From: Escherichia coli
Lineage (GTDB): Bacteria; Pseudomonadota; Gammaproteobacteria; Enterobacterales; Enterobacteriaceae
NCBI RefSeq assembly: GCF_044324785.1
Contig: NZ_CP172129.1
Direction: 5' to 3' (one strand)
Length of the DNA: 64,000 nt
A program made the position numbers and the translations under genes. Below, piece by piece: positions 8,066-26,496 of the stretch. Position 1 is the stretch's first letter, and the number at the start of each line of letters is the position of its first letter. Below the pieces are notes generated by a model. It did no database searches, was not told the DNA's origin, and worked only from the letters and a program-made list of their open reading frames with translations.

Positions 8066-9340
8066 TTGTTTCGCCAGGATGCTTTAGAAAACAGAAAAAT
8101 GAAGTGGCAGGGACGGGCAATATTACTTCCCGGAATACCACTGTGGTTAATCATGCTGGGAAGCATTGTGTTTATTACGGCATTTCTGATGTTCATTATT
8201 GTTGGTACCTATAGCCGCCGTGTTAATGTCAGTGGTGAGGTCACAACCTGGCCAAGAGCTGTCAATATATATTCAGGTGTACAGGGATTTGTTGTCAGGC
8301 AGTTTGTTCATGAAGGGCAGTTGATAAAAAAAGGGGATCCTGTTTATCTGATTGACATCAGTAAAAGTACACGCAATGGTATTGTCACTGATAATCATCG
8401 CCGGGATATAGAAAACCAGCTGGTTCGTGTGGACAACATTATTTCCCGTCTGGAAGAAAGTAAAAAAATAACGCTAGATACCCTGGAAAAACAACGTCTG
8501 CAATACACAGATGCGTTCCGTCGCTCATCAGACATTATACAGCGTGCAGAGGAAGGGATAAAAATAATGAAAAATAATATGGAGAATTACAGATACTATC
8601 AGTCAAAAGGACTGATTAATAAAGATCAATTAACTAACCAAGTTGCATTATATTATCAACAACAAAACAACCTTCTCAGTCTGAGCGGACAAAATGAACA
8701 AAATGCCCTGCAGATAACCACTCTGGAGAGTCAGATTCAGACTCAGGCAGCAGATTTTGATAATCGTATCTATCAGATGGAACTGCAACGACTCGAATTG
8801 CAGAAAGAACTGGTTAACACTGATGTGGAAGGCGAAATCATTATCCGGGCGTTGTCTGACGGGAAAGTTGACTCCCTGAGTGTCACTGTAGGGCAAATGG
8901 TCAATACCGGAGACAGCCTTCTGCAGGTTATTCCTGAGAACATTGAAAACTATTATCTTATTCTCTGGGTCCCGAATGATGCTGTTCCTTATATTTCGGC
9001 TGGTGACAAAGTGAATATTCGTTATGAAGCCTTCCCCTCAGAAAAATTTGGGCAGTTCTCTGCTACGGTTAAAACTATATCCAGGACTCCTGCGTCAACA
9101 CAGGAAATGTTGACCTATAAGGGAGCACCTCAAAATACGCCGGGTGCCTCTGTTCCCTGGTATAAAGTCATTGCGACGCCTGAAAAGCAGATAATCAGGT
9201 ATGACGAAAAATACCTCCCTCTGGAAAATGGAATGAAAGCCGAAAGTACACTATTTCTGGAAAAAAGGCGTATTTACCAGTGGATGCTTTCTCCTTTCTA
9301 TGACATGAAACACAGTGCAACAGGACCGATCAATGACTAA
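8066..9340 (+). CDS. cvaA: Colicin V secretion protein CvaA (HlyD-type membrane fusion protein; alternative internal start at 8099)
   Basis: Translation matches CvaA over its full length as recalled; N-terminal TM segment and coiled-coil region. Confidence 0.9.
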
Positions 9341-10109
9341 CAGGAATTTCAGACAAATTATAAATCTGCTTGATTTGCGCTGGCAACGTCGTGTTCCGGT
9401 TATTCATCAGACGGAGACCGCTGAATGTGGACTGGCCTGCCTAGCAATGATATGCGGTCATTTTGGTAAGAATATTGACCTGATATATCTTCGCCGGAAG
9501 TTTAATCTCTCTGCCCGTGGAGCAACCCTTGCAGGAATCAATGGAATAGCGGAGCAACTGGGGATGGCCACCCGGGCTCTTTCACTGGAGTTGGATGAAC
9601 TTCGAGTCCTCAAAACGCCGTGTATTCTCCACTGGGATTTCAGTCACTTCGTCGTTCTGGTCAGCGTAAAGCGTAACCGTTATGTACTGCATGATCCGGC
9701 CAGGGGCATAAGATATATCAGCCGGGAGGAAATGAGCCGATATTTTACAGGCGTTGCACTTGAGGTCTGGCCCGGAAGTGAATTCCAGTCGGAAACCCTG
9801 CAGACCCGCATAAGTCTTCGTTCACTGATTAACAGTATTTACGGTATTAAAAGAACGCTGGCGAAAATTTTCTGTCTGTCAGTTGTAATTGAAGCAATCA
9901 ATCTGCTAATGCCGGTGGGGACACAGCTGGTTATGGATCATGCTATTCCTGCGGGGGACAGAGGGCTACTGACGCTAATTTCTGCTGCTCTTATGTTTTT
10001 TATATTACTCAAAGCTGCAACGAGTACGCTGCGCGCATGGTCTTCACTGGTTATGAGCACGCTCATCAATGTACAGTGGCAGTCGGGGCTGTTCGATCAT
10101 CTTCTCAGA
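9333..10109 (+). pseudogene. cvaB: cvaB 5' fragment (C39 peptidase domain of the colicin V ABC exporter), interrupted after codons LLR by an IS
   Basis: MTNRNFRQ... with catalytic Cys in ETAECGLACLAMI; frame runs into the IS inverted repeat and stops. Confidence 0.85.
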
Positions 10110-11166
10110 GGCTTTGTTGAATAAATCGAACTTTTGCTGAGTTGAAGGATCAGATCACGTATCTTCCCGACAACGCAGACCGTTCCGTGGCAAAGCAAAA
10201 GTTCAAAATCACCAACTGGCCCACCTACAATAAAGCCCTCATCAACCGTGGCTCCATAACTTTCTGGCTGGATGATGAAGCTATTCAGGCCTGGTATGAG
10301 TCAGCAACACCTTCTTCACGAGGCAGACCTCAGCGCTATTCTGACCTTGCCATCACTACTGTGCTGGTCATTAAACGCGTATTCAGGCTGACCCTGCGGG
10401 CTGCGCAGGGCTTTATTGATTCCATTTTTTCTCTGATGAACGTTCCGCTACGCTGCCCGGATTACAGCTGTGTCAGCAGGCGGGCAAAGTCGGTTAATGT
10501 CAGTTTCAAAACGCCCACCCGGGGTGAAATCGCACACCTGGTAATTGATTCCACCGGGCTGAAGGTCTTCGGTGAAGGCGAGTGGAAAGTCAAAAAGCAT
10601 GGCCAGGAACGCCGCCGTATCTGGCGTAAGCTGCATCTCGCCGTTGACAGTAAAACACATGAAATCATCTGCGCTGACCTGTCGCTGAACAACGTTACGG
10701 ACTCAGAGGCCTTCCCCGGGTTAATCCGGCAAACCCACCGGAAAATCAGGTCAGCCGCCGCCGATGGCGCTTACGATACCCGGCTATGTCACGATGAACT
10801 GCGGCGTAAGAAAATCAGCGCGCTTATCCCTCCCCGAAAAGGTGCGGGTTACTGGCCCGGTGAATATGCAGACCGTAACCGTGCAGTGGCTAATCAGCGA
10901 ATGACCGGGAGTAATGCGCGGTGGAAATGGACAACAGATTACAACCGTCGCTCGATAGCGGAAACGGCGATGTACCGGGTAAAACAGCTGTTCGGGGGTT
11001 CACTGACGCTGCGTGACTACGATGGTCAGGTTGCGGAGGCTATGGCCCTGGTACGAGCGCTGAACAAAATGACGAAAGCAGGTATGCCTGAAAGCGTGCG
11101 TATTGCCTGAAAACACAACCCGCTACGGGGGAGACTTACCCGAAATCTGATTTATTCAACAAAGCC
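10110..11166 (+). mobile_element. IS903-group (IS5 family) insertion sequence, 1057 bp, with terminal inverted repeats and 9-bp target-site duplication CTTCTCAGA
   Basis: Ends ggctttgttgaataaatcgaa / ccgaaatctgatttattcaacaaagcc; identical 9-mer at 10101-10109 and 11167-11175. Confidence 0.85.
10142..11110 (+). CDS. IS903-group DDE transposase (322 aa)
   Basis: Motifs IDSTGLKVFGEGEWK, DGAYDT, RRSIAETAMYRVK typical of IS903/IS102 transposases. Confidence 0.8.
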   Translation: MKDQITYLPDNADRSVAKQKFKITNWPTYNKALINRGSITFWLDDEAIQAWYESATPSSRGRPQRYSDLAITTVLVIKRVFRLTLRAAQGFIDSIFSLMNVPLRCPDYSCVSRRAKSVNVSFKTPTRGEIAHLVIDSTGLKVFGEGEWKVKKHGQERRRIWRKLHLAVDSKTHEIICADLSLNNVTDSEAFPGLIRQTHRKIRSAAADGAYDTRLCHDELRRKKISALIPPRKGAGYWPGEYADRNRAVANQRMTGSNARWKWTTDYNRRSIAETAMYRVKQLFGGSLTLRDYDGQVAEAMALVRALNKMTKAGMPESVRIA

Positions 11167-12495
11167 CTTCTCAGACTACCGCTGGCGTTTTTTGAACGCC
11201 GAAAATTAGGTGATATCCAGTCACGTTTTGACTCCCTTGACACATTGAGGGCCACATTTACCACCAGTGTGATCGGGTTCATAATGGACAGCATTATGGT
11301 TGTCGGTGTTTGTGTGATGATGCTGTTATACGGAGGATATCTCACCTGGATAGTTCTCTGCTTTACCACAATTTACATTTTTATTCGTCTGGTGACATAC
11401 GGCAATTACCGACAGATATCAGAAGAATGTCTTGTCAGGGAGGCCCGTGCCGCCTCCTATTTTATGGAAACATTATATGGTATTGCCACGGTAAAAATCC
11501 AGGGGATGGTCGGAATTCGGGGGGCACACTGGCTTAATATGAAAATAGATGCGATAAATTCGGGTATTAAGCTAACCAGGATGGATTTGCTCTTCGGAGG
11601 AATAAATACCTTTGTTACCGCCTGTGATCAGATTGTAATTTTATGGCTGGGAGCAGGCCTTGTGATCGATAATCAGATGACAATAGGAATGTTTGTAGCG
11701 TTTAGTTCTTTTCGTGGGCAGTTTTCGGAAAGAGTTGCCTCTCTGACCAGTTTTCTTCTTCAGCTAAGAATAATGAGTCTGCACAATGAGCGCATTGCAG
11801 ATATTGCATTACATGAAAAGGAGGAAAAGAAACCTGAAATTGAAATCGTTGCTGATATGGGGCCAATATCCCTGGAAACCAATGGTTTAAGCTATCGTTA
11901 TGACAGTCAGTCAGCACCGATATTCAGTGCTCTGAGTTTATCTGTAGCTCCGGGGGAAAGTGTGGCTATAACTGGTGCTTCCGGTGCGGGAAAAACCACA
12001 TTAATGAAAGTACTATGTGGACTATTTGAACCTGATAGCGGGAGGGTACTGATAAATGGTATAGATATACGCCAAATTGGAATAAATAATTATCACCGGA
12101 TGATAGCCTGTGTTATGCAGGATGACCGGCTATTTTCAGGCTCAATTCGTGAAAATATCTGTGGTTTTGCAGAGGAAATGGATGAAGAGTGGATGGTAGA
12201 ATGTGCCAGAGCAAGTCATATTCATGATGTTATAATGAATATGCCAATGGGATATGAAACATTAATAGGTGAACTTGGGGAAGGTCTTTCTGGCGGTCAA
12301 AAACAGCGTATATTTATTGCACGAGCCTTATACCGGAAACCAGGAATATTATTTATGGATGAGGCAACCAGTGCTCTTGATTCAGAGAGTGAACATTTCG
12401 TGAATGTTGCCATAAAAAACATGAATATCACCAGGGTAATTATTGCACACAGAGAAACAACGTTGAGAACTGTTGATAGAGTTATTTCTATTTAA
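11167..12495 (+). pseudogene. cvaB: cvaB 3' fragment (transmembrane and ABC ATPase domains)
   Basis: Resumes in frame at the duplicated LLR codons; Walker A GASGAGKTT, ABC signature LSGGQKQR, Walker B ILFMDEATSALD. Confidence 0.85.
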
Positions 12496-17072: not shown

Positions 17073-18953
17073 TTAAATACCCCAGAACTTATTCGCTTTT
17101 TCCACAAGCGATTCATCAATCAGCGCACCGGTGACAGCCATCAGTAAACCATACCCGATAATGCCTAAAGCGCTTCCGGTAAGAATACTGAAGACCAGTG
17201 CAACAAGAGCCGTTGCGGCATTGCCTGCTATAATGGCTTCTGTTTTAACAAAAAGAGGACGCCAGTTCTCTGTCCGGACACCCTTACCAAACTCAGTGAT
17301 CCAGTCAGCAAGACTTGTAAATTTTCCTGCATATCCCAGTCCCCGACTGAATCTGTTCAGATTAGACGATATATCAGACAGCTTCACTGACTCAAGGGCT
17401 GCGGCAATCGCTGCACGATCTTTTGCATTAATTTTTTTGTTAATGTCAGCCCGGTACTTTTCATACGTTTTTAATGCCTCTTCAACATTACGTATTTTCT
17501 TCCCTTTAGCCTGCCCGGCCATCTCTCTGGCTAACTGCTCAGCTTTTGCACCATATTTTTCTGAAACTGATTTCAGGAACTCTGTTGTGAAATTAATTGC
17601 GTCTTTCGTTGCCTTCAGTTCATCCTGTTTTCTTTTCTCTTCCGCTATCTTCTGATTGATGCCGGCAAGCTGGTTACGGATATTCTCTTTTTCCTTCAAC
17701 AGGGCATTAAGAGCGTCATTTGCATGCTTTTGCTCATTTGTTCTGGCACTGAGGTTATTTCTCGCAGAATTTACCGCAGATTCAGCAGAGGTGATTTTAT
17801 TTCTGGCATCAAGCAATCTTTGCCGTAACTTATCCCATTCAGCAACTTCAGCATTATAAATTTTCTTGTCACCTTCCACATCCTCTGTCACCACCGGATT
17901 CCGGTCATTCAGAATATTGCGTTTATAGTCCAGACCGGAATGGGTCAGAAGATAATTCAGGTTTGCACGGTTATCGATGACTGCGCTGGTTGTGATTTTT
18001 ATCGTACCGGCAAATCTCGGATCACCGCTCACAACAATAGAATGATTTGTTGATGAACGCCCCGGGAATTTTTCAGGGGAAACTATCGTTTTGCCGTCAA
18101 GCGTGTTTTTCTGTTGCGTCAGCTGTTGCTCAGCTCTGGTTAATGCATTACGGGCCGTGTTAAGCGATTCCGTCACTGAACTGAGTTTATTCCGGGCCTC
18201 TGAAATGGCCCTGTCATTCCGTGTCTGCTGCCCGAGCAGACGGGCCTGTTGTGCATCAAGAACGGCAAGGGCTGCCCCGCCATTTTTTTCCAGCTCTGAC
18301 AACCGCGTGTCCAGAATACCTTTTCTGCGCTCGTATTCAGCAAGCATATCAGCGGCCTTCTTGTCTGCGTTCTGCGCATCCTTCTGCCGTTTTTCAGCCT
18401 GTTCGATTAACGACCTGGCCTCCCGGGGAGATATACGAAGAGAATCAGCATCAGCAAAGAGCATCCGGCTCTCTGTATGCAGCCGGAGGGCATCATATCC
18501 GGCGATTTCAGTACGGAATCCGTATTCTCTCAGCTCTGCCTGCAGGAGTCTGAACTCCTGTCGTGTAATATCAGCGGCATCTGCGTTTCCGGCACGGAGT
18601 GTTTTCAGTGTGTTTTCATCTTTTTCCCTTGCAGCAATCGCCGCAGAGAGGCGTTTTGCGGCTTCAGTACGCTTATTCTCATTCTCTTTCTGCTGCGCGC
18701 TGAGCGTCATTTTGTACGCTGTGATTTCCTTGTCCCTTTTTTCGATATCACTTCGGGTTGGGGAATCATCGACCCACTCGTTTCCGCCCCAGATGGTTTT
18801 GTTCCCGAAGGAACTCCATGCAGGCGGGGTACCATGAAAGACATCGACACGTGGAGGGTTTACATAAATATCAACGGCCATAATTTCATGGCCATCTGAA
18901 TCATACCCCAGCGATTCTGCACCGGGATTTGTAATACGTACAGGGTCAGACAT
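17073..18953 (-). CDS. cia: Colicin Ia (626 aa, pore-forming)
   Basis: 626-aa product MSDPVRITNPGAESLGYDSDGHEIMAVDIY... with C-terminal hydrophobic channel-forming hairpin. Confidence 0.95.
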   Translation of the reverse strand: MSDPVRITNPGAESLGYDSDGHEIMAVDIYVNPPRVDVFHGTPPAWSSFGNKTIWGGNEWVDDSPTRSDIEKRDKEITAYKMTLSAQQKENENKRTEAAKRLSAAIAAREKDENTLKTLRAGNADAADITRQEFRLLQAELREYGFRTEIAGYDALRLHTESRMLFADADSLRISPREARSLIEQAEKRQKDAQNADKKAADMLAEYERRKGILDTRLSELEKNGGAALAVLDAQQARLLGQQTRNDRAISEARNKLSSVTESLNTARNALTRAEQQLTQQKNTLDGKTIVSPEKFPGRSSTNHSIVVSGDPRFAGTIKITTSAVIDNRANLNYLLTHSGLDYKRNILNDRNPVVTEDVEGDKKIYNAEVAEWDKLRQRLLDARNKITSAESAVNSARNNLSARTNEQKHANDALNALLKEKENIRNQLAGINQKIAEEKRKQDELKATKDAINFTTEFLKSVSEKYGAKAEQLAREMAGQAKGKKIRNVEEALKTYEKYRADINKKINAKDRAAIAAALESVKLSDISSNLNRFSRGLGYAGKFTSLADWITEFGKGVRTENWRPLFVKTEAIIAGNAATALVALVFSILTGSALGIIGYGLLMAVTGALIDESLVEKANKFWGI

Positions 18954-19024: not shown

Positions 19025-19138
19025 TTAATTTATTAAGGAGAAAATGGCATGTCAAGATTTAATGATAGTGATTATCATTAACATGAAGTGATTTTACGTC
19101 TGGATAACGTAAATGATTGCGGTATACAGGCCAGGCGG

Positions 19139-19987
19139 TCAGATTTTCAGCCGTGCCTGTTCCTGCAGCAGTTCCAGATGATATGCAGCAATAGCGTTTA
19201 CCACCCCTGCCGTCATCCGTGCGTCGGCGATCGCTGAGTGTGCCTGCCCTTCCCAGGTCAGTCCGGCCTGGCTGGCAGCACAGGCCAGTGAAATCGTGCC
19301 ATAGCGGTTGGTGGCCCCATAATATCCTGCAGCCAGCTCCATCGCACAATATACCGTCAGTTCTTCCAGCCAGTCAGCCGGATCGCTATGTGCGGCAGCA
19401 GTCTGTTTCAGAATGCGGATGTCGAACCGGGCATTAAAGATAATTACTGGTCGGTCCCCGATTGCATGACGCAGTTGCCGCGCCACATCTGTCCATGATG
19501 GTGCGCCGCAGAGAGCCTGCTCGCTGATACCATGCACAGCGGCGGCCTGCGCCCCGATGGCGACCGTGGGCTTCAGCCTGGTTTCAAATACCACCTGACC
19601 GGACGCATCGGTCAGGCCGATTTCCAGAGCTTCCGCGGTATTGTCCAGTCCTGTCGTTTCAGTATCCAGAAAGAGCGGTGCCAGACTCAGCCAGTCATAT
19701 GCCTGCCGTGCCATCCGGCCACTGGTGCTGTTAAGTCTGGATAAAACGGAAAGTCGCTGGCCAGCCAGAAGTTGTTTACTCGTCAGTGGGCGTTTCTCAC
19801 GCATCGGAACACAGTCTGCAATTCGGTATACAGCGAACCTGCCACCATAAGTGTTTTTATACCACTTAACCGGCTCAGCACCGGGGGCTGGCTTCATTCT
19901 GAATTCATCGCGCAGCCGTTCTTTCGAGAAACACCTGTCTTCGGCAATCGCCTGCGCACGTCTGGTGGCCAGCTCATCATTATTCAT
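19139..19987 (-). CDS. DnaQ-like DEDDh 3'-5' exonuclease domain protein (282 aa)
   Basis: Exo I motif LFLDTETTGLD, then an HxAxxD-type motif (HSAIADA) near the C-terminus. Confidence 0.7.
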   Translation of the reverse strand: MNNDELATRRAQAIAEDRCFSKERLRDEFRMKPAPGAEPVKWYKNTYGGRFAVYRIADCVPMREKRPLTSKQLLAGQRLSVLSRLNSTSGRMARQAYDWLSLAPLFLDTETTGLDNTAEALEIGLTDASGQVVFETRLKPTVAIGAQAAAVHGISEQALCGAPSWTDVARQLRHAIGDRPVIIFNARFDIRILKQTAAAHSDPADWLEELTVYCAMELAAGYYGATNRYGTISLACAASQAGLTWEGQAHSAIADARMTAGVVNAIAAYHLELLQEQARLKI

Positions 19988-20032
19988 GGTTCTTGCATCT
20001 CCGTCAGACCTTTTTATATCCGGACAGCCCCT

Positions 20033-20314
20033 CTATGGCCACTTCTGTGCAGTATGCAATACACGCAGGATATACACTTTTCCCCACTGGCTGTCGACCT
20101 CATAAACCAGAACAAAATGCGGGTGAATAACCAGTTCCCGGGTACCTTCCACACGACCGTTGCGGCCTTTATACGGCTGCCCGGCCAGGCTGCTGGCTGA
20201 ATAACCAATCCGTTCGTCCAGTTCAATGGCGGCCATCAGGTTCTGCTCCGCAATGTACTCACGAATGCGCTTCCTGTCCTGGCTGGCCAGCATGGTCCAG
20301 AATATCTCCATCAT
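20033..20314 (-). CDS. ParE/RelE-family type II toxin (93 aa)
   Basis: Small basic protein overlapping the stop of the upstream RHH antitoxin gene; typical toxin-antitoxin layout. Confidence 0.75.
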   Translation of the reverse strand: MMEIFWTMLASQDRKRIREYIAEQNLMAAIELDERIGYSASSLAGQPYKGRNGRVEGTRELVIHPHFVLVYEVDSQWGKVYILRVLHTAQKWP

Positions 20315-20580
20315 TTACCGGCGACTTTCCTGCTCATTTCATCCCGCCATGCAGCAGCGGAAGATTCGACCATGTCATGGGGAAGCACATCGCCGCGCTC
20401 GAGTTGCTGACGTCCTGCCTCAACCTGGTCACGGAACCAGGTATTATGCTGCCGTTCCACGGTCTGGCGCATAAAATCCCGGATTAACTGAGAGCCATTA
20501 CGGTCCATGCTTTTTGCAGCGGCCATAAAAGCATCCTTCAGTTCAGCGTCAATTCTTAAACTCATATTAACCTGTGCCAT
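20311..20580 (-). CDS. Ribbon-helix-helix (ParD/CopG-like) antitoxin (89 aa)
   Basis: N-terminal RHH-like segment SLRIDAELKDAF; 4-bp overlap with the toxin gene. Confidence 0.75.
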   Translation of the reverse strand: MAQVNMSLRIDAELKDAFMAAAKSMDRNGSQLIRDFMRQTVERQHNTWFRDQVEAGRQQLERGDVLPHDMVESSAAAWRDEMSRKVAGK

Positions 20581-21190: not shown

Positions 21191-21228
21191 GGGGAGCCCG
21201 CAGAATTCGGAAAAAATCGTACGCTAAG
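21191..21228. repeat. 38-bp terminal inverted repeat of a Tn21-subgroup (Tn3-family) transposon (tnpA end)
   Basis: ggggagcccgcagaattcggaaaaaatcgtacgctaag immediately downstream of the tnpA stop. Confidence 0.75.
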
Positions 21229-24190
21229 GTTTTCCGGGCATCCGTAAGGGCCGAAACTTCCCGTCTTCCAGTCTGCGGCTCTGCCGCCAGACGTAATCGC
21301 CGGTTAGGTTGATGTGCTCCCAGCCCAGCGGCGACAGGAATTGCAGCAGCTCGCCGTCCACCGGCTTGCCGGCCTCGACCAACCCCTGGGTGGCGCGTTC
21401 CAGGTACACCGTGTTCCACAGCACGATAGCCGCCGTCACCAGGTTGAGGCCGCTGGCCCGGTAGCGCTGCTGCTCGAAGCTCCGATCCCTGATTTCCCCA
21501 AGGCGGTTGAAGAACACCGCCCTGGCCAGCGAGTTGCGCGCCTCACCTTTGTTCAGGCCGGCATGCACGCGGCGGCGCAGTTCAACACTTTGCAGCCAGT
21601 CCAGGATGAACAGCGTGCGCTCGATCCGGCCCAGCTCGCGCAGGGCCACGGCCAGTCCGTTCTGGCGCGGGTAGCTGCCGAGCTTGCGCAGCATCAGCGA
21701 GGCGGTGACGGTGCCCTGCTTGATCGAGCTGGCCAGGCGCAGGATGTCGTCCCAGTGGGCACGCACGTGCTTGATGTTCAGGGTGCCGCCGATCAGCGGG
21801 CGCAACGTCGGGTAGGCTTGCACGCCCTGCGGCACGTACAGCTTGGTTTCGCCGAGGTCGCGGATGCGCGGCGCGAAGCGGAAGCCTAGCAGGTGCATCA
21901 GGGCAAAGACGTGATCGGTGAAGCCGGCCGTGTCGGTGTAGTGCTCCTCGATCCGCAGGTCGGACTCGTGGTACAGCAGGCCGTCGAGCACATAGGTGGA
22001 ATCGCGGACGCCGACATTCACCACGCGGGTGCTGAACGGCGCGTACTGGTCGGAGATATGGGTATAGAACAGCCGTCCCGGCTCGCTACCGTACTTCGGG
22101 TTGACGTGCCCGGTGCTCTCGCCCCGGCCACCCGCGCGGAAGCGCTGGCCATCGGAGGATGAGGTCGTGCCGTCGCCCCAGTGGGCGGCAAAGGCGTGGC
22201 GATACTGGTGGTTGACCAGCTCGGCCAAGGCCGCCGAATAGGTTTCGTCGCGGATGTGCCAGGCTTGCAGCCAGGACAGCTTGGCGTAGGTCAGGCCGGG
22301 GCTCGACTCGGCCATCTTGGTCAGCCCGAGGTTGATCGCATCACCGAGGATTGCGGACAGCAGCAACGTCCTGTCTTTGGCCTCGGCCCCGTCCTTCAAG
22401 TGGGTGAAGTGGCGGCTGAAGCCCGTCCAGTCGTCCACGTCCATCAGCAGTTCGGTGATCTTGATGCGCGGCAGTAACTGGCTGGTTTGGTCGATCAGCG
22501 CCTGCGCCCGATCCGGCACCGCCGCATCCAGCGGGGTGATTTTCAGCCCTGACTCGGTGAGGATGGCATCGGGCAGCTCGTTGTCCTTGGCCAGGCGGGT
22601 GACGGTGGCCAACTGCTCGTCCAGCAGCTGCAAACGCTCTTCCAGGTACTGGTCGCTGTTCGGGTTGATCGCCAGGGGCAGGGCCTGCTCGCGCTTGAGT
22701 GCGGCGAACTTCTCGGCCGGCAGCAGGTAGTCGTCGAAGTCGCGGAACTGCCGCGAGCCCTTGACCCAGATGTCGCCGGAGCGCAGGGCGTTCTTCAGCT
22801 CGGACAGGGCGCAGATTTCGTAGAATTTCCGGTCGAGGCCTTCCGGGGTGATCACCAGCGGCTTCCAGCGCGGCTTGATGAAGGCCGTGGGTGCATCGGC
22901 CGGCACCTTGCGCAGGTTGTCGGCGTTCATCTCACGCAGGGTCTGCACGGCTGCCAGCACGCCTTGCGCGGCCGGCGCGGCGCGCAGTTCCAGCACCTCC
23001 AGCAAGGCCGGCGTGTAACGGCGCAGGGTGGCGAAGTTCTCGCCGACCAGGTGCAGGTGGTCGAAGCCTTCCGGCCGGGCCAGCAGCTCGGCCTCGCTGA
23101 CGCTCTCGGTGAACTCGTCCCAGGGAATCACCGCCTCGATGGCGGCATAGGGGTCGCTGCCGCTTTCCTTCGCTTCCAGCAGCGCCTGGCCGATCCTGGA
23201 GTACAGGCGCACCTTGTCGTTGATCGCCTTGCCCTGCTTCTGGAACTGCTGCTGATGCTTGTGCTTCGCGCCGCTGAACAGCTTGACCAGGATGCGGTCA
23301 TGCAGATCGACCAGCTCATCGATCACGGTCGCGGTGCTCTCCAGCACCACGGCGGCCAGGGTCGCGTAGCGGCGCTGCGGCTCGAACTTACCGAGGTCTT
23401 TGGGCGTCATCTGCCCACCCTCGCGGGCCAGCTTGAGCAGGCGGTTCTGGTGGATGTGCCGGCCCAGGCCTTCGGGCAAGTCCACCAACTGAAATGTCTT
23501 CAGCCGCTCGATGTGTTCCAGCATGTGCCGAGAGTTGGGTTTCAGCGGTGCCTGGCGCAGCCAGGTCAACCAGGTGATGCTGCTGCCGGCCTTGAGCTTC
23601 AACAGCTCGTCCAGCTTGGCCCGATGCGAGTCCGTGAGTGGTTCGACCAGGGCGCGGTAGACCCGCCGATTGGCTCGCGCAATGGCTTCCGAGCAGGCCC
23701 GGTCAATCACGCTCAGCGCCGGCAGGATGCGTCGTTTCTGCCGTAGGCTCTCCAGGGCCTGACCGGCCAGCAGCAAGCCTTTGTCGGTCTGCTGGGCCAG
23801 CTCGGTTAGCTCGCGCACCAGGGCGCGGAAGTCGGACAGGCCGAACGGGGCCAGTTGCAGGTAGGTGCGCAGTTCCTGGGCATGCTCGCGACGGGTCACG
23901 TCGCGCTCGCCGTACTTTGCCCAGCTCGCCGGCTCGGCCTGGACTTGCTTCGCCACCCACAGGATGACCGGCTCGGGCAGCTCGCTGTCGGTTCCCAGCG
24001 CGTAACCGGGGTAGCGCAGCAGGCAGAGCTGCACGGCGAAGCCGAGGCGGTTGGCGTCGCCGCGTCGCTGGCGGATCAGCGACAGGTCGGAGTCGTTGAA
24101 GGTGTAGTAGCGGATCAGGTCATCCTGGCTTTCCGGCAGCGCAAGCAGGGTGTCCCGCTCCGTGGCCGAGAGGATCAAGCGACGCGGCAT
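21224..24190 (-). CDS. tnpA: Tn3-family transposase TnpA (988 aa), Tn21/Tn1721 subgroup
   Basis: 988-aa product with a conserved DDE C-terminal region; followed by a serine-recombinase resolvase gene. Confidence 0.9.
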
Positions 24191-24193
24191 GTG

Positions 24194-24754
24194 TCAGTCG
24201 TCCGTGCGGAGGTACTGGTAGAGGGTTTCCCGGCTGATGTTGAACTCGCGGGCAAGCTGCGCCTTGGGCTCGCCGGCCGTCGCTCGCTGCCGCAGGGTAG
24301 CAGCCTGCTCATCGGACAGGGCTTTCTTGCGGCCCCGGTACGCGCCACGCTGCTTGGCCAAGGCGATGCCCTCACGCTGCCGCTCGCGGATCAGGGCGCG
24401 CTCGAACTCAGCGAAGGCCCCCATCACCGACAGCATCAGGTTGGCCATCGGCGAGTCCTCGCCAGTGAACACCAGGCCCTCCTTCAGGAACTCGATGCGC
24501 ACGCCGCGCTGAGTCAGCTTCTGTACCAAGCGACGCAGGTCATCGAGGTTGCGGGCCAGCCGATCCATGCTGTGCACCACCACTGTATCGCCTTCGCGGA
24601 CGAAGCTCAGCAGCGCTTCGAGCTGGGGGCGCTGGGTGTCCTTGCCCGATGCCTTGTCGGTGAACACCTTGCTCACCTGGGTTTGTTCCAGCTGGCGTTC
24701 CGGGTTCTGGTCAAAGCTGCTGACCCGGACGTAGCCGATGCGGTGCCCCTGCAC
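24194..24754 (-). CDS. tnpR: Serine-recombinase resolvase TnpR (186 aa)
   Basis: Catalytic serine motif GYVRVSSFDQN and C-terminal helix-turn-helix. Confidence 0.9.
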   Translation of the reverse strand: MQGHRIGYVRVSSFDQNPERQLEQTQVSKVFTDKASGKDTQRPQLEALLSFVREGDTVVVHSMDRLARNLDDLRRLVQKLTQRGVRIEFLKEGLVFTGEDSPMANLMLSVMGAFAEFERALIRERQREGIALAKQRGAYRGRKKALSDEQAATLRQRATAGEPKAQLAREFNISRETLYQYLRTDD

Positions 24755-25482: not shown

Positions 25483-26496
25483 CTACCTCTCACTAGTGAG
25501 GGGCGGCAGCGCATCAAGCGGTGAGCGCACTCCGGCACCGCCAACTTTCAGCACATGCGTGTAAATCATCGTCGTAGAGACGTCGGAATGGCCGAGCAGA
25601 TCCTGCACGGTTCGAATGTCGTAACCGCTGCGGAGCAAGGCCGTCGCGAACGAGTGGCGGAGGGTGTGCGGTGTGGCGGGCTTCGTGATGCCTGCTTGTT
25701 CTACGGCACGTTTGAAGGCGCGCTGAAAGGTCTGGTCATACATGTGATGGCGACGCACGACACCGCTCCGTGGATCGGTCGAATGCGTGTGCTGCGCAAA
25801 AACCCAGAACCACGGCCAGGAATGCCCGGCGCGCGGATACTTCCGCTCAAGGGCGTCGGGAAGCGCAACGCCGCTGCGGCCCTCGGCCTGGTCCTTCAGC
25901 CACCATGCCCGTGCACGCGACAGCTGCTCGCGCAGGCTGGGTGCCAAGCTCTCGGGTAACATCAAGGCCCGATCCTTGGAGCCCTTGCCCTCCCGCACGA
26001 TGATCGTGCCGTGATCGAAATCCAGATCCTTGACCCGCAGTTGCAAACCCTCACTGATCCGCATGCCCGTTCCATACAGAAGCTGGGCGAACAAACGATG
26101 CTCGCCTTCCAGAAAACCGAGGATGCGAACCACTTCATCCGGGGTCAGCACCACCGGCAAGCGCCGCGACGGCCGAGGTCTTCCGATCTCCTGAAGCCAG
26201 GGCAGATCCGTGCACAGCACCTTGCCGTAGAAGAACAGCAAGGCCGCCAATGCCTGACGATGCGTGGAGACCGAAACCTTGCGCTCGTTCGCCAGCCAGG
26301 ACAGAAATGCCTCGACTTCGCTGCTGCCCAAGGTTGCCGGGTGACGCACACCGTGGAAACGGATGAAGGCACGAACCCAGTGGACATAAGCCTGTTCGGT
26401 TCGTAAGCTGTAATGCAAGTAGCGTATGCGCTCACGCAACTGGTCCAGAACCTTGACCGAACGCAGCGGTGGTAACGGCGCAGTGGCGGTTTTCAT
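25483..26496 (-). CDS. intI1: Class 1 integron integrase IntI1 (337 aa)
   Basis: Tyrosine recombinase; full-length match to IntI1 as recalled (ends ...[24 protein letters not shown]). Confidence 0.95.
26381..26409 (+). promoter_or_regulatory. Integron cassette promoter Pc, weak variant (-35 TGGACA, 17-bp spacer, -10 TAAGCT)
   Basis: Hexamers read directly inside the 5' end of intI1 on the opposite strand. Confidence 0.7.

Follow-up and report, generated by a model that had tools for sequence, protein, structure and literature searches.

The gene yacC lies at positions 19139..19987, on the minus strand, of a 64,000-nucleotide stretch of Escherichia coli DNA (contig NZ_CP172129.1), which was analyzed at its full length and is referred to below as the window. 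Its product, YacC, is a two-domain protein of the DEDDh type and resembles EcTon, a plasmid-encoded exonuclease reported to defend E. coli against RNA phages. We propose, with a probability of roughly 0.4, that YacC is an EcTon-type 3′-5′ exonuclease, likely acting on the 3′ ends of single-stranded RNA (ssRNA), whose role is to protect a pilus-bearing host from ssRNA phages. Of the two proteins, RNA trimming and phage defense are established for EcTon only, and the substrate and role suggested here for YacC follow from analogy with it.

Results

Identity of the gene

The open reading frame (ORF) of yacC begins with ATG, is intact in the ORF listing of the window, and encodes 282 amino acids (aa) that are 100% identical to WP_001057989.1. 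A 1.8-kb segment containing it is 100% identical across many ColV-Ia-type plasmids, such as pECOS88/pS88, where the genes are annotated as yacA, yacB, and “3′-5′ exonuclease” (WP_001057989.1). The exonuclease is called “putative exoribonuclease YacC” in the pS88 paper, and the name yacC is also in use on IncI plasmids. Judged by this identity, the ORF of the window is yacC, which comes third in the yacA-yacB-yacC module located downstream of IncI and IncFII replicons. As part of the plasmid backbone, the gene is very common and has long been annotated; it is already known and found here in its usual place. The original prediction, made from the window alone, had regarded such an exonuclease between a bacteriocin gene and a toxin-antitoxin locus as an unusual arrangement, but this view could not be maintained, given that ColV-Ia plasmids share the identical segment and that homologues of YacC were detected by tblastn in 4,032 of the 72,556 plasmids of PLSDB (~5.6%).

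Catalytic domain and active site

The DEDDh exonuclease domain occupies aa 105-270 (19178..19675, minus strand, as for all parts of yacC described below) and is supported by sequence and fold matches in the PDB and by the Pfam family RNase_T (PF00929), which matched aa 106-262 with an E-value of 3.4e-15 and 57 bits against a cut-off of 24. Alignment to DNA polymerase III (Pol III) epsilon, PolC, and ExoX placed the catalytic residues at D108/E110, D189, and H250/D255. They fall in the ExoI motif D108-T109-E110 (19658..19666), at the ExoII Asp D189 (19421..19423), which corresponds to D191 of EcTon, the position changed in EcTon-DEAD, and in the ExoIII-epsilon motif H250-x4-D255 (19223..19240). 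Among 37 homologues of YacC with 29-86% identity, the Asp and the Glu of ExoI are each retained in 36, and all five catalytic residues are kept in 32. The motifs LFLDTETTGLD and HSAIADA, from which the original prediction had recognized a free-standing DEDDh (DnaQ-like) exonuclease, are present and the active site is intact; the conservation of the DEDDh residues on alignment, on which that proposal had been made to depend, was confirmed.

The AlphaFold2 model of YacC has a pLDDT of 96.7 and a pTM of 0.86, and its exonuclease domain can be superposed on Pol III epsilon of E. coli with a TM-score of ~0.8, normalized to the target (Foldseek: 2ido, 2gui, and 1j53). The next-best fold matches are the streptococcal CRISPR-associated DnaQ domain, PolC, the exonuclease domain of DinG, ExoX, and RNase T. 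The motifs and the predicted RNase H-like exonuclease fold together assign YacC to the DEDDh (DnaQ-like) superfamily. DnaQ epsilon and the exonuclease domain of PolC, which are 23-24% and 27-28% identical to YacC, respectively, are the closest solved structures and contain the same DEDDh motif set. YacC is, however, unlike epsilon in that it has an extra N-terminal domain, lacks the C-terminal alpha-binding segment, and scores far under the dnaQ equivalog cut-offs (TIGR01406, 55.3 bits against 222.7; NF004316, 52.8 against 196). The TIGR01406 match spans only profile positions 4-170 of 231, the C-terminal segment of epsilon being the part that is missing. Assignment as exodeoxyribonuclease X was also rejected (NF005937, 30.3 bits against a cut-off of 202), as was assignment as RNase T or as other named equivalogs, which the curated models do not accept; with the family profile, RNase T came up solely among the distant PDB matches (1e-8). 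The label “DNA polymerase III subunit epsilon,” which is frequent in databases, is an over-annotation. Human ISG20 (PDB 1wlj), the functional template of the study described below, is a member of the same superfamily and matches the family profile with an E-value of 2.9e-7, whereas it is a single-domain protein distant in sequence from YacC.

N-terminal accessory domain

The N-terminal accessory domain (aa 1-104; 19676..19987) is modeled as an initial helix followed by a small sheet of five strands with a helix of its own and then by a helical hairpin (aa 70-101). The sheet and its helix form a beta subdomain (aa 17-63; 19799-19939), which is the best-conserved part of YacC in the homologue alignment. 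The original prediction had described this region of ~100 aa as one of unknown function and had suggested a domain search, which bore out the description by finding no recognizable relatives: aa 1-104 gave no match in Pfam, NCBIfam, PDB sequences, or viral folds, and PHROGs and PADLOC returned only the unannotated phrog_25825. The domain is matched by only 127 clusters among 1.84 billion. Many of these matches are short fragments, and the full-length ones are nearly all proteins of ~280-300 aa with the same two-domain architecture. On the evidence of these searches, the domain is restricted to the YacC family, and the family signature, an N-terminal RLRDEFRMKP...YR..DC.P motif fused to a DEDDh domain, is found in YacC, the N-terminal domain being present throughout the two homologue alignments that were built.

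Relationship to EcTon and other antiphage exonucleases

Santos et al. (bioRxiv 2026-07-01; PMC13344964) reported that human ISG20 and 8 of 27 bacterial DEDDh homologues, which they named “TONDOs,” protect E. coli from MS2, and that ISG20 and four followed-up TONDOs protect it from Qbeta too. In purified form, EcTon shortens the 3′ untranslated region of MS2 and Qbeta at its single-stranded 3′ end and is stopped by a structured end, while the protection conferred by EcTon depends on the catalytic Asp, as shown with the D191A mutant. TONDOs usually have auxiliary domains of unknown origin, and 3′ trimming of phage RNA in vitro was demonstrated for EcTon and ISG20 only (PMC13344964). The first 399 nt of each insert listed in the supplementary table of that study were compared with the genes analyzed here. 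The EcTon construct is identical at 399/399 nt to the IncC gene of locus L015 (WP_000997323.1), and this identity, together with an ExoII Asp at position 191 that matches the D191A mutant, identifies EcTon as the IncC member of the YacC family. In the same comparison, the construct designated “Can C” proved to be identical at 399/399 nt to the ORF of the window.

EcTon and YacC have the same two-domain architecture and are 50% identical over 283 columns (E = 3e-96); the beta subdomain in the N-terminal domain is especially similar, the catalytic residues are identical, with D189 of YacC equivalent to D191 of EcTon, and both proteins are encoded on conjugative plasmids. The alignment places them in one two-domain family. 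Their neighbors, however, are different, EcTon being accompanied by a tyrosine recombinase, a Tus-like protein, and KfrA, and YacC by YacAB and colicin Ia. Phage relatives that consist of the exonuclease domain without the N-terminal one, i.e., VP882 gp46-like proteins and that of vB_VpaM_MAR, match the proteins that were named SeTon, VpTon, and VPhiTon in that study (PMC13344964): SeTon is VP882 gp46-like, and VPhiTon, or Candidate G, is derived from Vibrio phage vB_VpaM_MAR. The ExoII Asp of VP882 gp46 is D100. These proteins of VP882- and MAR-type Vibrio and Salmonella phage-plasmids are 37-40% identical to YacC in the exonuclease domain and share the family-typical CAM and NA.FD motifs with it, but unlike YacC they have a short C-terminal Cys-rich tail or, in the case of VPhiTon, need a separate small ORF.

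Distribution, selection, and decay

Among the 4,032 PLSDB carriers, 2,674 have matches covering ≥80% of the YacC query, and 3,038 are conjugative plasmids. Identity to YacC is 95-100% on IncI and IncF plasmids, 86% on IncL/M, 59% on a pESI-like Salmonella megaplasmid, 50% on IncC, 49% on a Pseudomonas megaplasmid, and 39% on a Shewanella plasmid. Homologues are also carried by two divergent lineages of integrative and conjugative elements (ICEs), with 70% and 49% identity. The exonuclease domain alone occurs in P2-like phages and VP882/MAR phage-plasmids, while a few Vibrio phage-plasmids encode both domains, in one case beside a helicase-primase and a telomere resolvase. Across conjugative plasmids, ICEs, and phage-plasmids, yacC is a conserved accessory gene. 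Comparison with the IncL/M copy indicates purifying selection, with dN/dS of ~0.14 for the whole protein, 0.11 for the N-terminal domain, and 0.16 for the exonuclease domain. The neighbors of the homologues vary widely across loci, as would be expected for an autonomous single-gene function.

Degraded copies were also observed. All that is left in Salmonella plasmids of ~55-94 kb, one of them from Paratyphi C, is an N-terminal piece covering aa 15-156 (63% identical), for which the annotation is hypothetical protein; we take these plasmids to be pSLT-type virulence plasmids. In many Klebsiella plasmids, nothing but an unannotated C-terminal piece (aa 154-276, 68% identical) remains. The pattern indicates repeated decay of yacC, apparently mostly in IncF-type lineages. 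Separately, five of the 37 family representatives (P0151, P0194, P0207, P0219, and P0230) keep the N-terminal domain and have lost at least one catalytic residue (e.g., ARESD or DEHND). These may be pseudogenes or nuclease-independent variants like some of the reported TONDOs.

Genomic neighborhood

Upstream of yacC, and on the minus strand like it, are yacA (20311..20580), which encodes a ribbon-helix-helix antitoxin and is the first gene of the operon, and yacB (20033..20314), which encodes a ParE/RelE-family toxin; both were recognized by profile searches, and yacB is not an obligate partner of yacC. The 45-nt spacer between yacB and yacC contains no predicted terminator and includes a possible Shine-Dalgarno sequence read from the letters, GGAG, 11 nt 5′ of the yacC ATG (19999..20002). 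The two genes share a reading frame, with one stop codon plus 15 codons between them (19988-20035). In the published transcriptome table of pS88, which covers four conditions, yacA, yacB, and yacC each have a value below 1 in three of them, and yacA diverges in the fourth (4.30 against 1.57 and 0.95). Because of the short spacer without a predicted terminator, the shared frame, and the common direction in three of the four pS88 conditions, yacC is probably co-transcribed with yacAB. A 384-aa product combining ParE_toxin and RNase_T also exists in the protein database (P0001, 98% identical, 11 member sequences) and presumably reflects either a variant with an altered stop codon or a fusion made in gene calling.

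In 22 loci, YacAB adjoins the YacC homologue only in two copies of ≥98% identity (IncF and IncI) and is absent from all 20 loci, some duplicate contexts included, in which the homologue has ≤86% identity. Linkage to the toxin-antitoxin pair is therefore specific to a lineage, and YacC was rejected as an obligate component of a toxin-antitoxin system. The toxin-antitoxin genes in turn occur without yacC, as yacAB or as yacA alone. This is the case on Shigella pINV, according to the literature, and in pECOS88, where another copy of yacA, 100% identical, precedes a yacB-like gene (81% identical) of which only the first 48 codons are left (L001 1213-1622; positions 96549-96958 of the record), a remnant duplicate of the module. 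The gene order is repA2-tap-repA1 (IncFII)-yacA-yacB-yacC-cia in pECOS88 and repY-repZ-yacA-yacB-yacC-yadA in the IncI plasmid pSTM709, and the module yacABC is therefore standard in the backbone downstream of I-type and FII-type replicons. In the window, a 38-bp inverted repeat of the Tn3 family, GGGGAGCCCGCAGAATTCGGAAAAAATCGTACGCTAAG, which we presume to be Tn1721-like, starts at 21191 and is followed by tnpA of a Tn3-family transposon (21224-24190), a resolvase gene (24194-24754), and a gene for an integron-type integrase (25483-26496), all three on the minus strand. From the point matching 21191, which lies downstream of the stop of repA by ~305 bp, pECOS88 continues instead to the IncFII repA. 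Within the window, repA was not found, and the inverted repeat was not found a second time. The lack of repA and the presence of the transposon at 21191 therefore indicate that yacABC has been cut off from its replicon there.

On the other side, 3′ of yacC and on the same strand, is cia, the gene for colicin Ia (17073..18953; ORF listing and profile search). The spacer between the two genes contains a near-consensus sigma-70 promoter-like site, TTGACA-17-TAAATT (19027-19055, minus strand), which is presumably the colicin Ia promoter, so that cia would be transcribed independently of yacABC. A functional meaning of this adjacency was rejected because no colicin gene adjoins the exonuclease gene in the loci examined outside the ColV-Ia backbone (IncI pSTM709, IncL/M, IncC, the pESI-like Salmonella megaplasmid, the Pseudomonas megaplasmid, and ICEs); the adjacency is a property of the ColV-Ia/IncI-derived backbone. 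Further away, cvaB, the colicin V exporter gene, is apparently split into an N-terminal Peptidase_C39/ABC_membrane ORF (9315-10124) and a C-terminal ABC ORF (11245-12495), with a DDE_Tnp_1 insertion sequence transposase gene (10142-11110) between the two parts, so that this plasmid probably does not support the export of colicin V.

Two contexts of homologues elsewhere may also be described. In IncC pPG010208 (L015 7986-14560), EcTon is part of an apparent operon in the order tyrosine recombinase, EcTon, small ORF, Tus-like terminus-binding protein, KfrA-like DNA-binding protein, and UvrD-like helicase, just upstream of traF/H/G, in which EcTon starts 4 nt after the recombinase gene and the small ORF overlaps. 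On a 270-kb Salmonella plasmid, the gene for the YacC homologue overlaps the end of kfrA (L002 7039-8858).

Discussion

The reaction of YacC can be pictured as follows. The N-terminal accessory domain would pack against a catalytic domain that likely employs the two-metal mechanism of DEDDh enzymes, in which D108, E110, D189, and D255 would bind the metals and H250 would act as the general base. By homology with EcTon, the enzyme most likely removes nucleotides from ssRNA 3′ ends, for which it is expected to have a preference, and would halt at a duplex. Although yacC is probably co-transcribed with yacAB, its product would work alone. The most plausible role would be to shield the pilus-bearing host from ssRNA phages, whose replicase needs an intact 3′ end for its start, and the occurrence of family members mostly on pilus-encoding elements (ICEs as well as plasmids, of which 3,038/4,032 are conjugative) is consistent with it. 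The original prediction had suggested that the protein could act in plasmid maintenance, anti-defense, or nucleic-acid degradation, whereas the experiments available for the family, on EcTon as a 3′ RNA exonuclease active against ssRNA phages and on “Can C,” lead in another direction.

Several observations weigh against this proposal. In contrast to EcTon, which blocks MS2 and Qbeta and trims RNA 3′ ends, YacC in the form of “Can C” was not protective against MS2: the construct kept its candidate name and is absent from the eight protective genes, and thus belongs to the 19 genes, out of 27, without a protective effect when expressed alone at a multiplicity of infection of 0.1. YacC is therefore not a TONDO by the definition of the authors (PMC13344964). 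Metal-dependent 3′-5′ exonuclease activity has been shown for the 50%-identical EcTon, from which it would have to be extended to YacC by analogy. EcTon had no sequence preference in vitro (PMC13344964), and its protection could therefore be an effect of over-expression. About a third of the plasmid copies are truncated remnants (1,358/4,032 records have less than 80% coverage). Moreover, the closest solved structures by both sequence and fold, epsilon, PolC, and ExoX, are DNA exonucleases, with ISG20 being a weaker match. Since yacC alone gave no protection from MS2, the target range of YacC would have to differ from that of EcTon, or a native partner or the native expression level would be required. 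A different range may be explained by the natural home of the module, since other phages use the pili of IncI; YacC may need a partner or its native context, as VPhiTon does; the “Can C” construct may have been poorly expressed; or the native role of the family may be something else.

One alternative is that YacC is a DNA 3′-5′ exonuclease trimming 3′ ends or flaps for the replication, termination, multimer resolution, or post-transfer establishment of its own element, with the RNA-phage effect of its relatives as a side activity. We consider this unlikely but deserving of serious attention. EcTon acts in vitro as an RNA 3′ exonuclease and its antiviral phenotype is nuclease-dependent (PMC13344964), while YacC lacks the hallmarks of a proofreading subunit, both in its score of 55 bits against the dnaQ cut-off of 222.7 and in the absence of the C-terminal segment of epsilon. 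Genes of DNA metabolism do adjoin some homologues, but no single one recurs across contexts, and such regions are in any case where genes that are active in the carried state tend to gather.

YacC could also be an RNA-phage-defense exonuclease of diverged specificity, which would act only against ssRNA phages of other pili (IncI and IncL/M) or only together with YacAB, and whose beta subdomain would be a new fold for recognition of nucleic acids or a partner. This combination of features seems rather improbable. A more distant idea, to which we attach little likelihood, is that YacC is an anti-defense or establishment factor that degrades immune nucleic acids of the host, such as signaling oligonucleotides, retron/DRT cDNA, or CRISPR prespacers. 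In the two ICE lineages, the homologue is indeed found among ArdA/KlcA-type (PF03230) and ArdC genes, an orphan N6 methyltransferase gene, and HigBA, just upstream of the TraI_2 relaxase gene, and the only PADLOC models matching YacC are the generic cas-associated DEDDh model and, in their exonuclease part, PDC-S48 models. These matches are, however, at the level of the domain (aa 105-268), with no full-length system-specific match; yacC of IncF and IncI plasmids adjoins the replicon rather than lying in the leading region; and the characterized homologue EcTon acts in defense, not counter-defense. A literature search on leading-region or anti-defense exonucleases gave nothing specific.

Equally hard to favor is the view that yacC is a hitch-hiking passenger without current function on the IncF ColV-Ia plasmid of the window. 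It would account for the negative MS2 test of “Can C,” the abundance of fragments, whether N-terminal in Salmonella or C-terminal in Klebsiella, among the 1,358 records of low coverage, and the loss of catalytic residues in 5/37 representatives. The ORF is, however, intact and identical across many plasmids, and dN/dS of 0.13-0.20 in both domains shows continuing selection in the lineage. Finally, it is very improbable that YacC is a functional third component of YacAB, for instance processing RNA cleaved by the RelE/ParE-type toxin or modulating the module, because the same strand, the short terminator-free spacer, the shared frame, the similar movement of the three genes in pS88, and the fusion P0001 are set against an adjacency limited to two near-identical copies among 22 loci and the occurrence of yacAB or yacA without yacC in pECOS88 and, according to the literature, Shigella pINV, although a dependence of YacC on a neighboring gene in the manner of Candidate G is possible by analogy.

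The family is carried by ~5.6% of PLSDB plasmids, including IncI, IncF, IncL/M, and IncC plasmids of resistance and virulence, and has just received its first functional characterization, in which the sequence of the window was included as a negative candidate. What remains of interest is the difference between EcTon and YacC and the N-terminal domain: a protective enzyme and a non-protective one, which are 50% identical and have the same architecture, provide a ready pair for mapping the determinants of protection. If the reading of diverged specificity that operates together with YacAB were true, yacABC would be a three-gene operon for defense against RNA phages on thousands of resistance and virulence plasmids. 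The link to EcTon suggests that conjugative elements may offset the exposure brought by their pili with exonucleases that disarm pilus-specific RNA phages, which would be relevant to phage-based strategies against plasmid-bearing bacteria.
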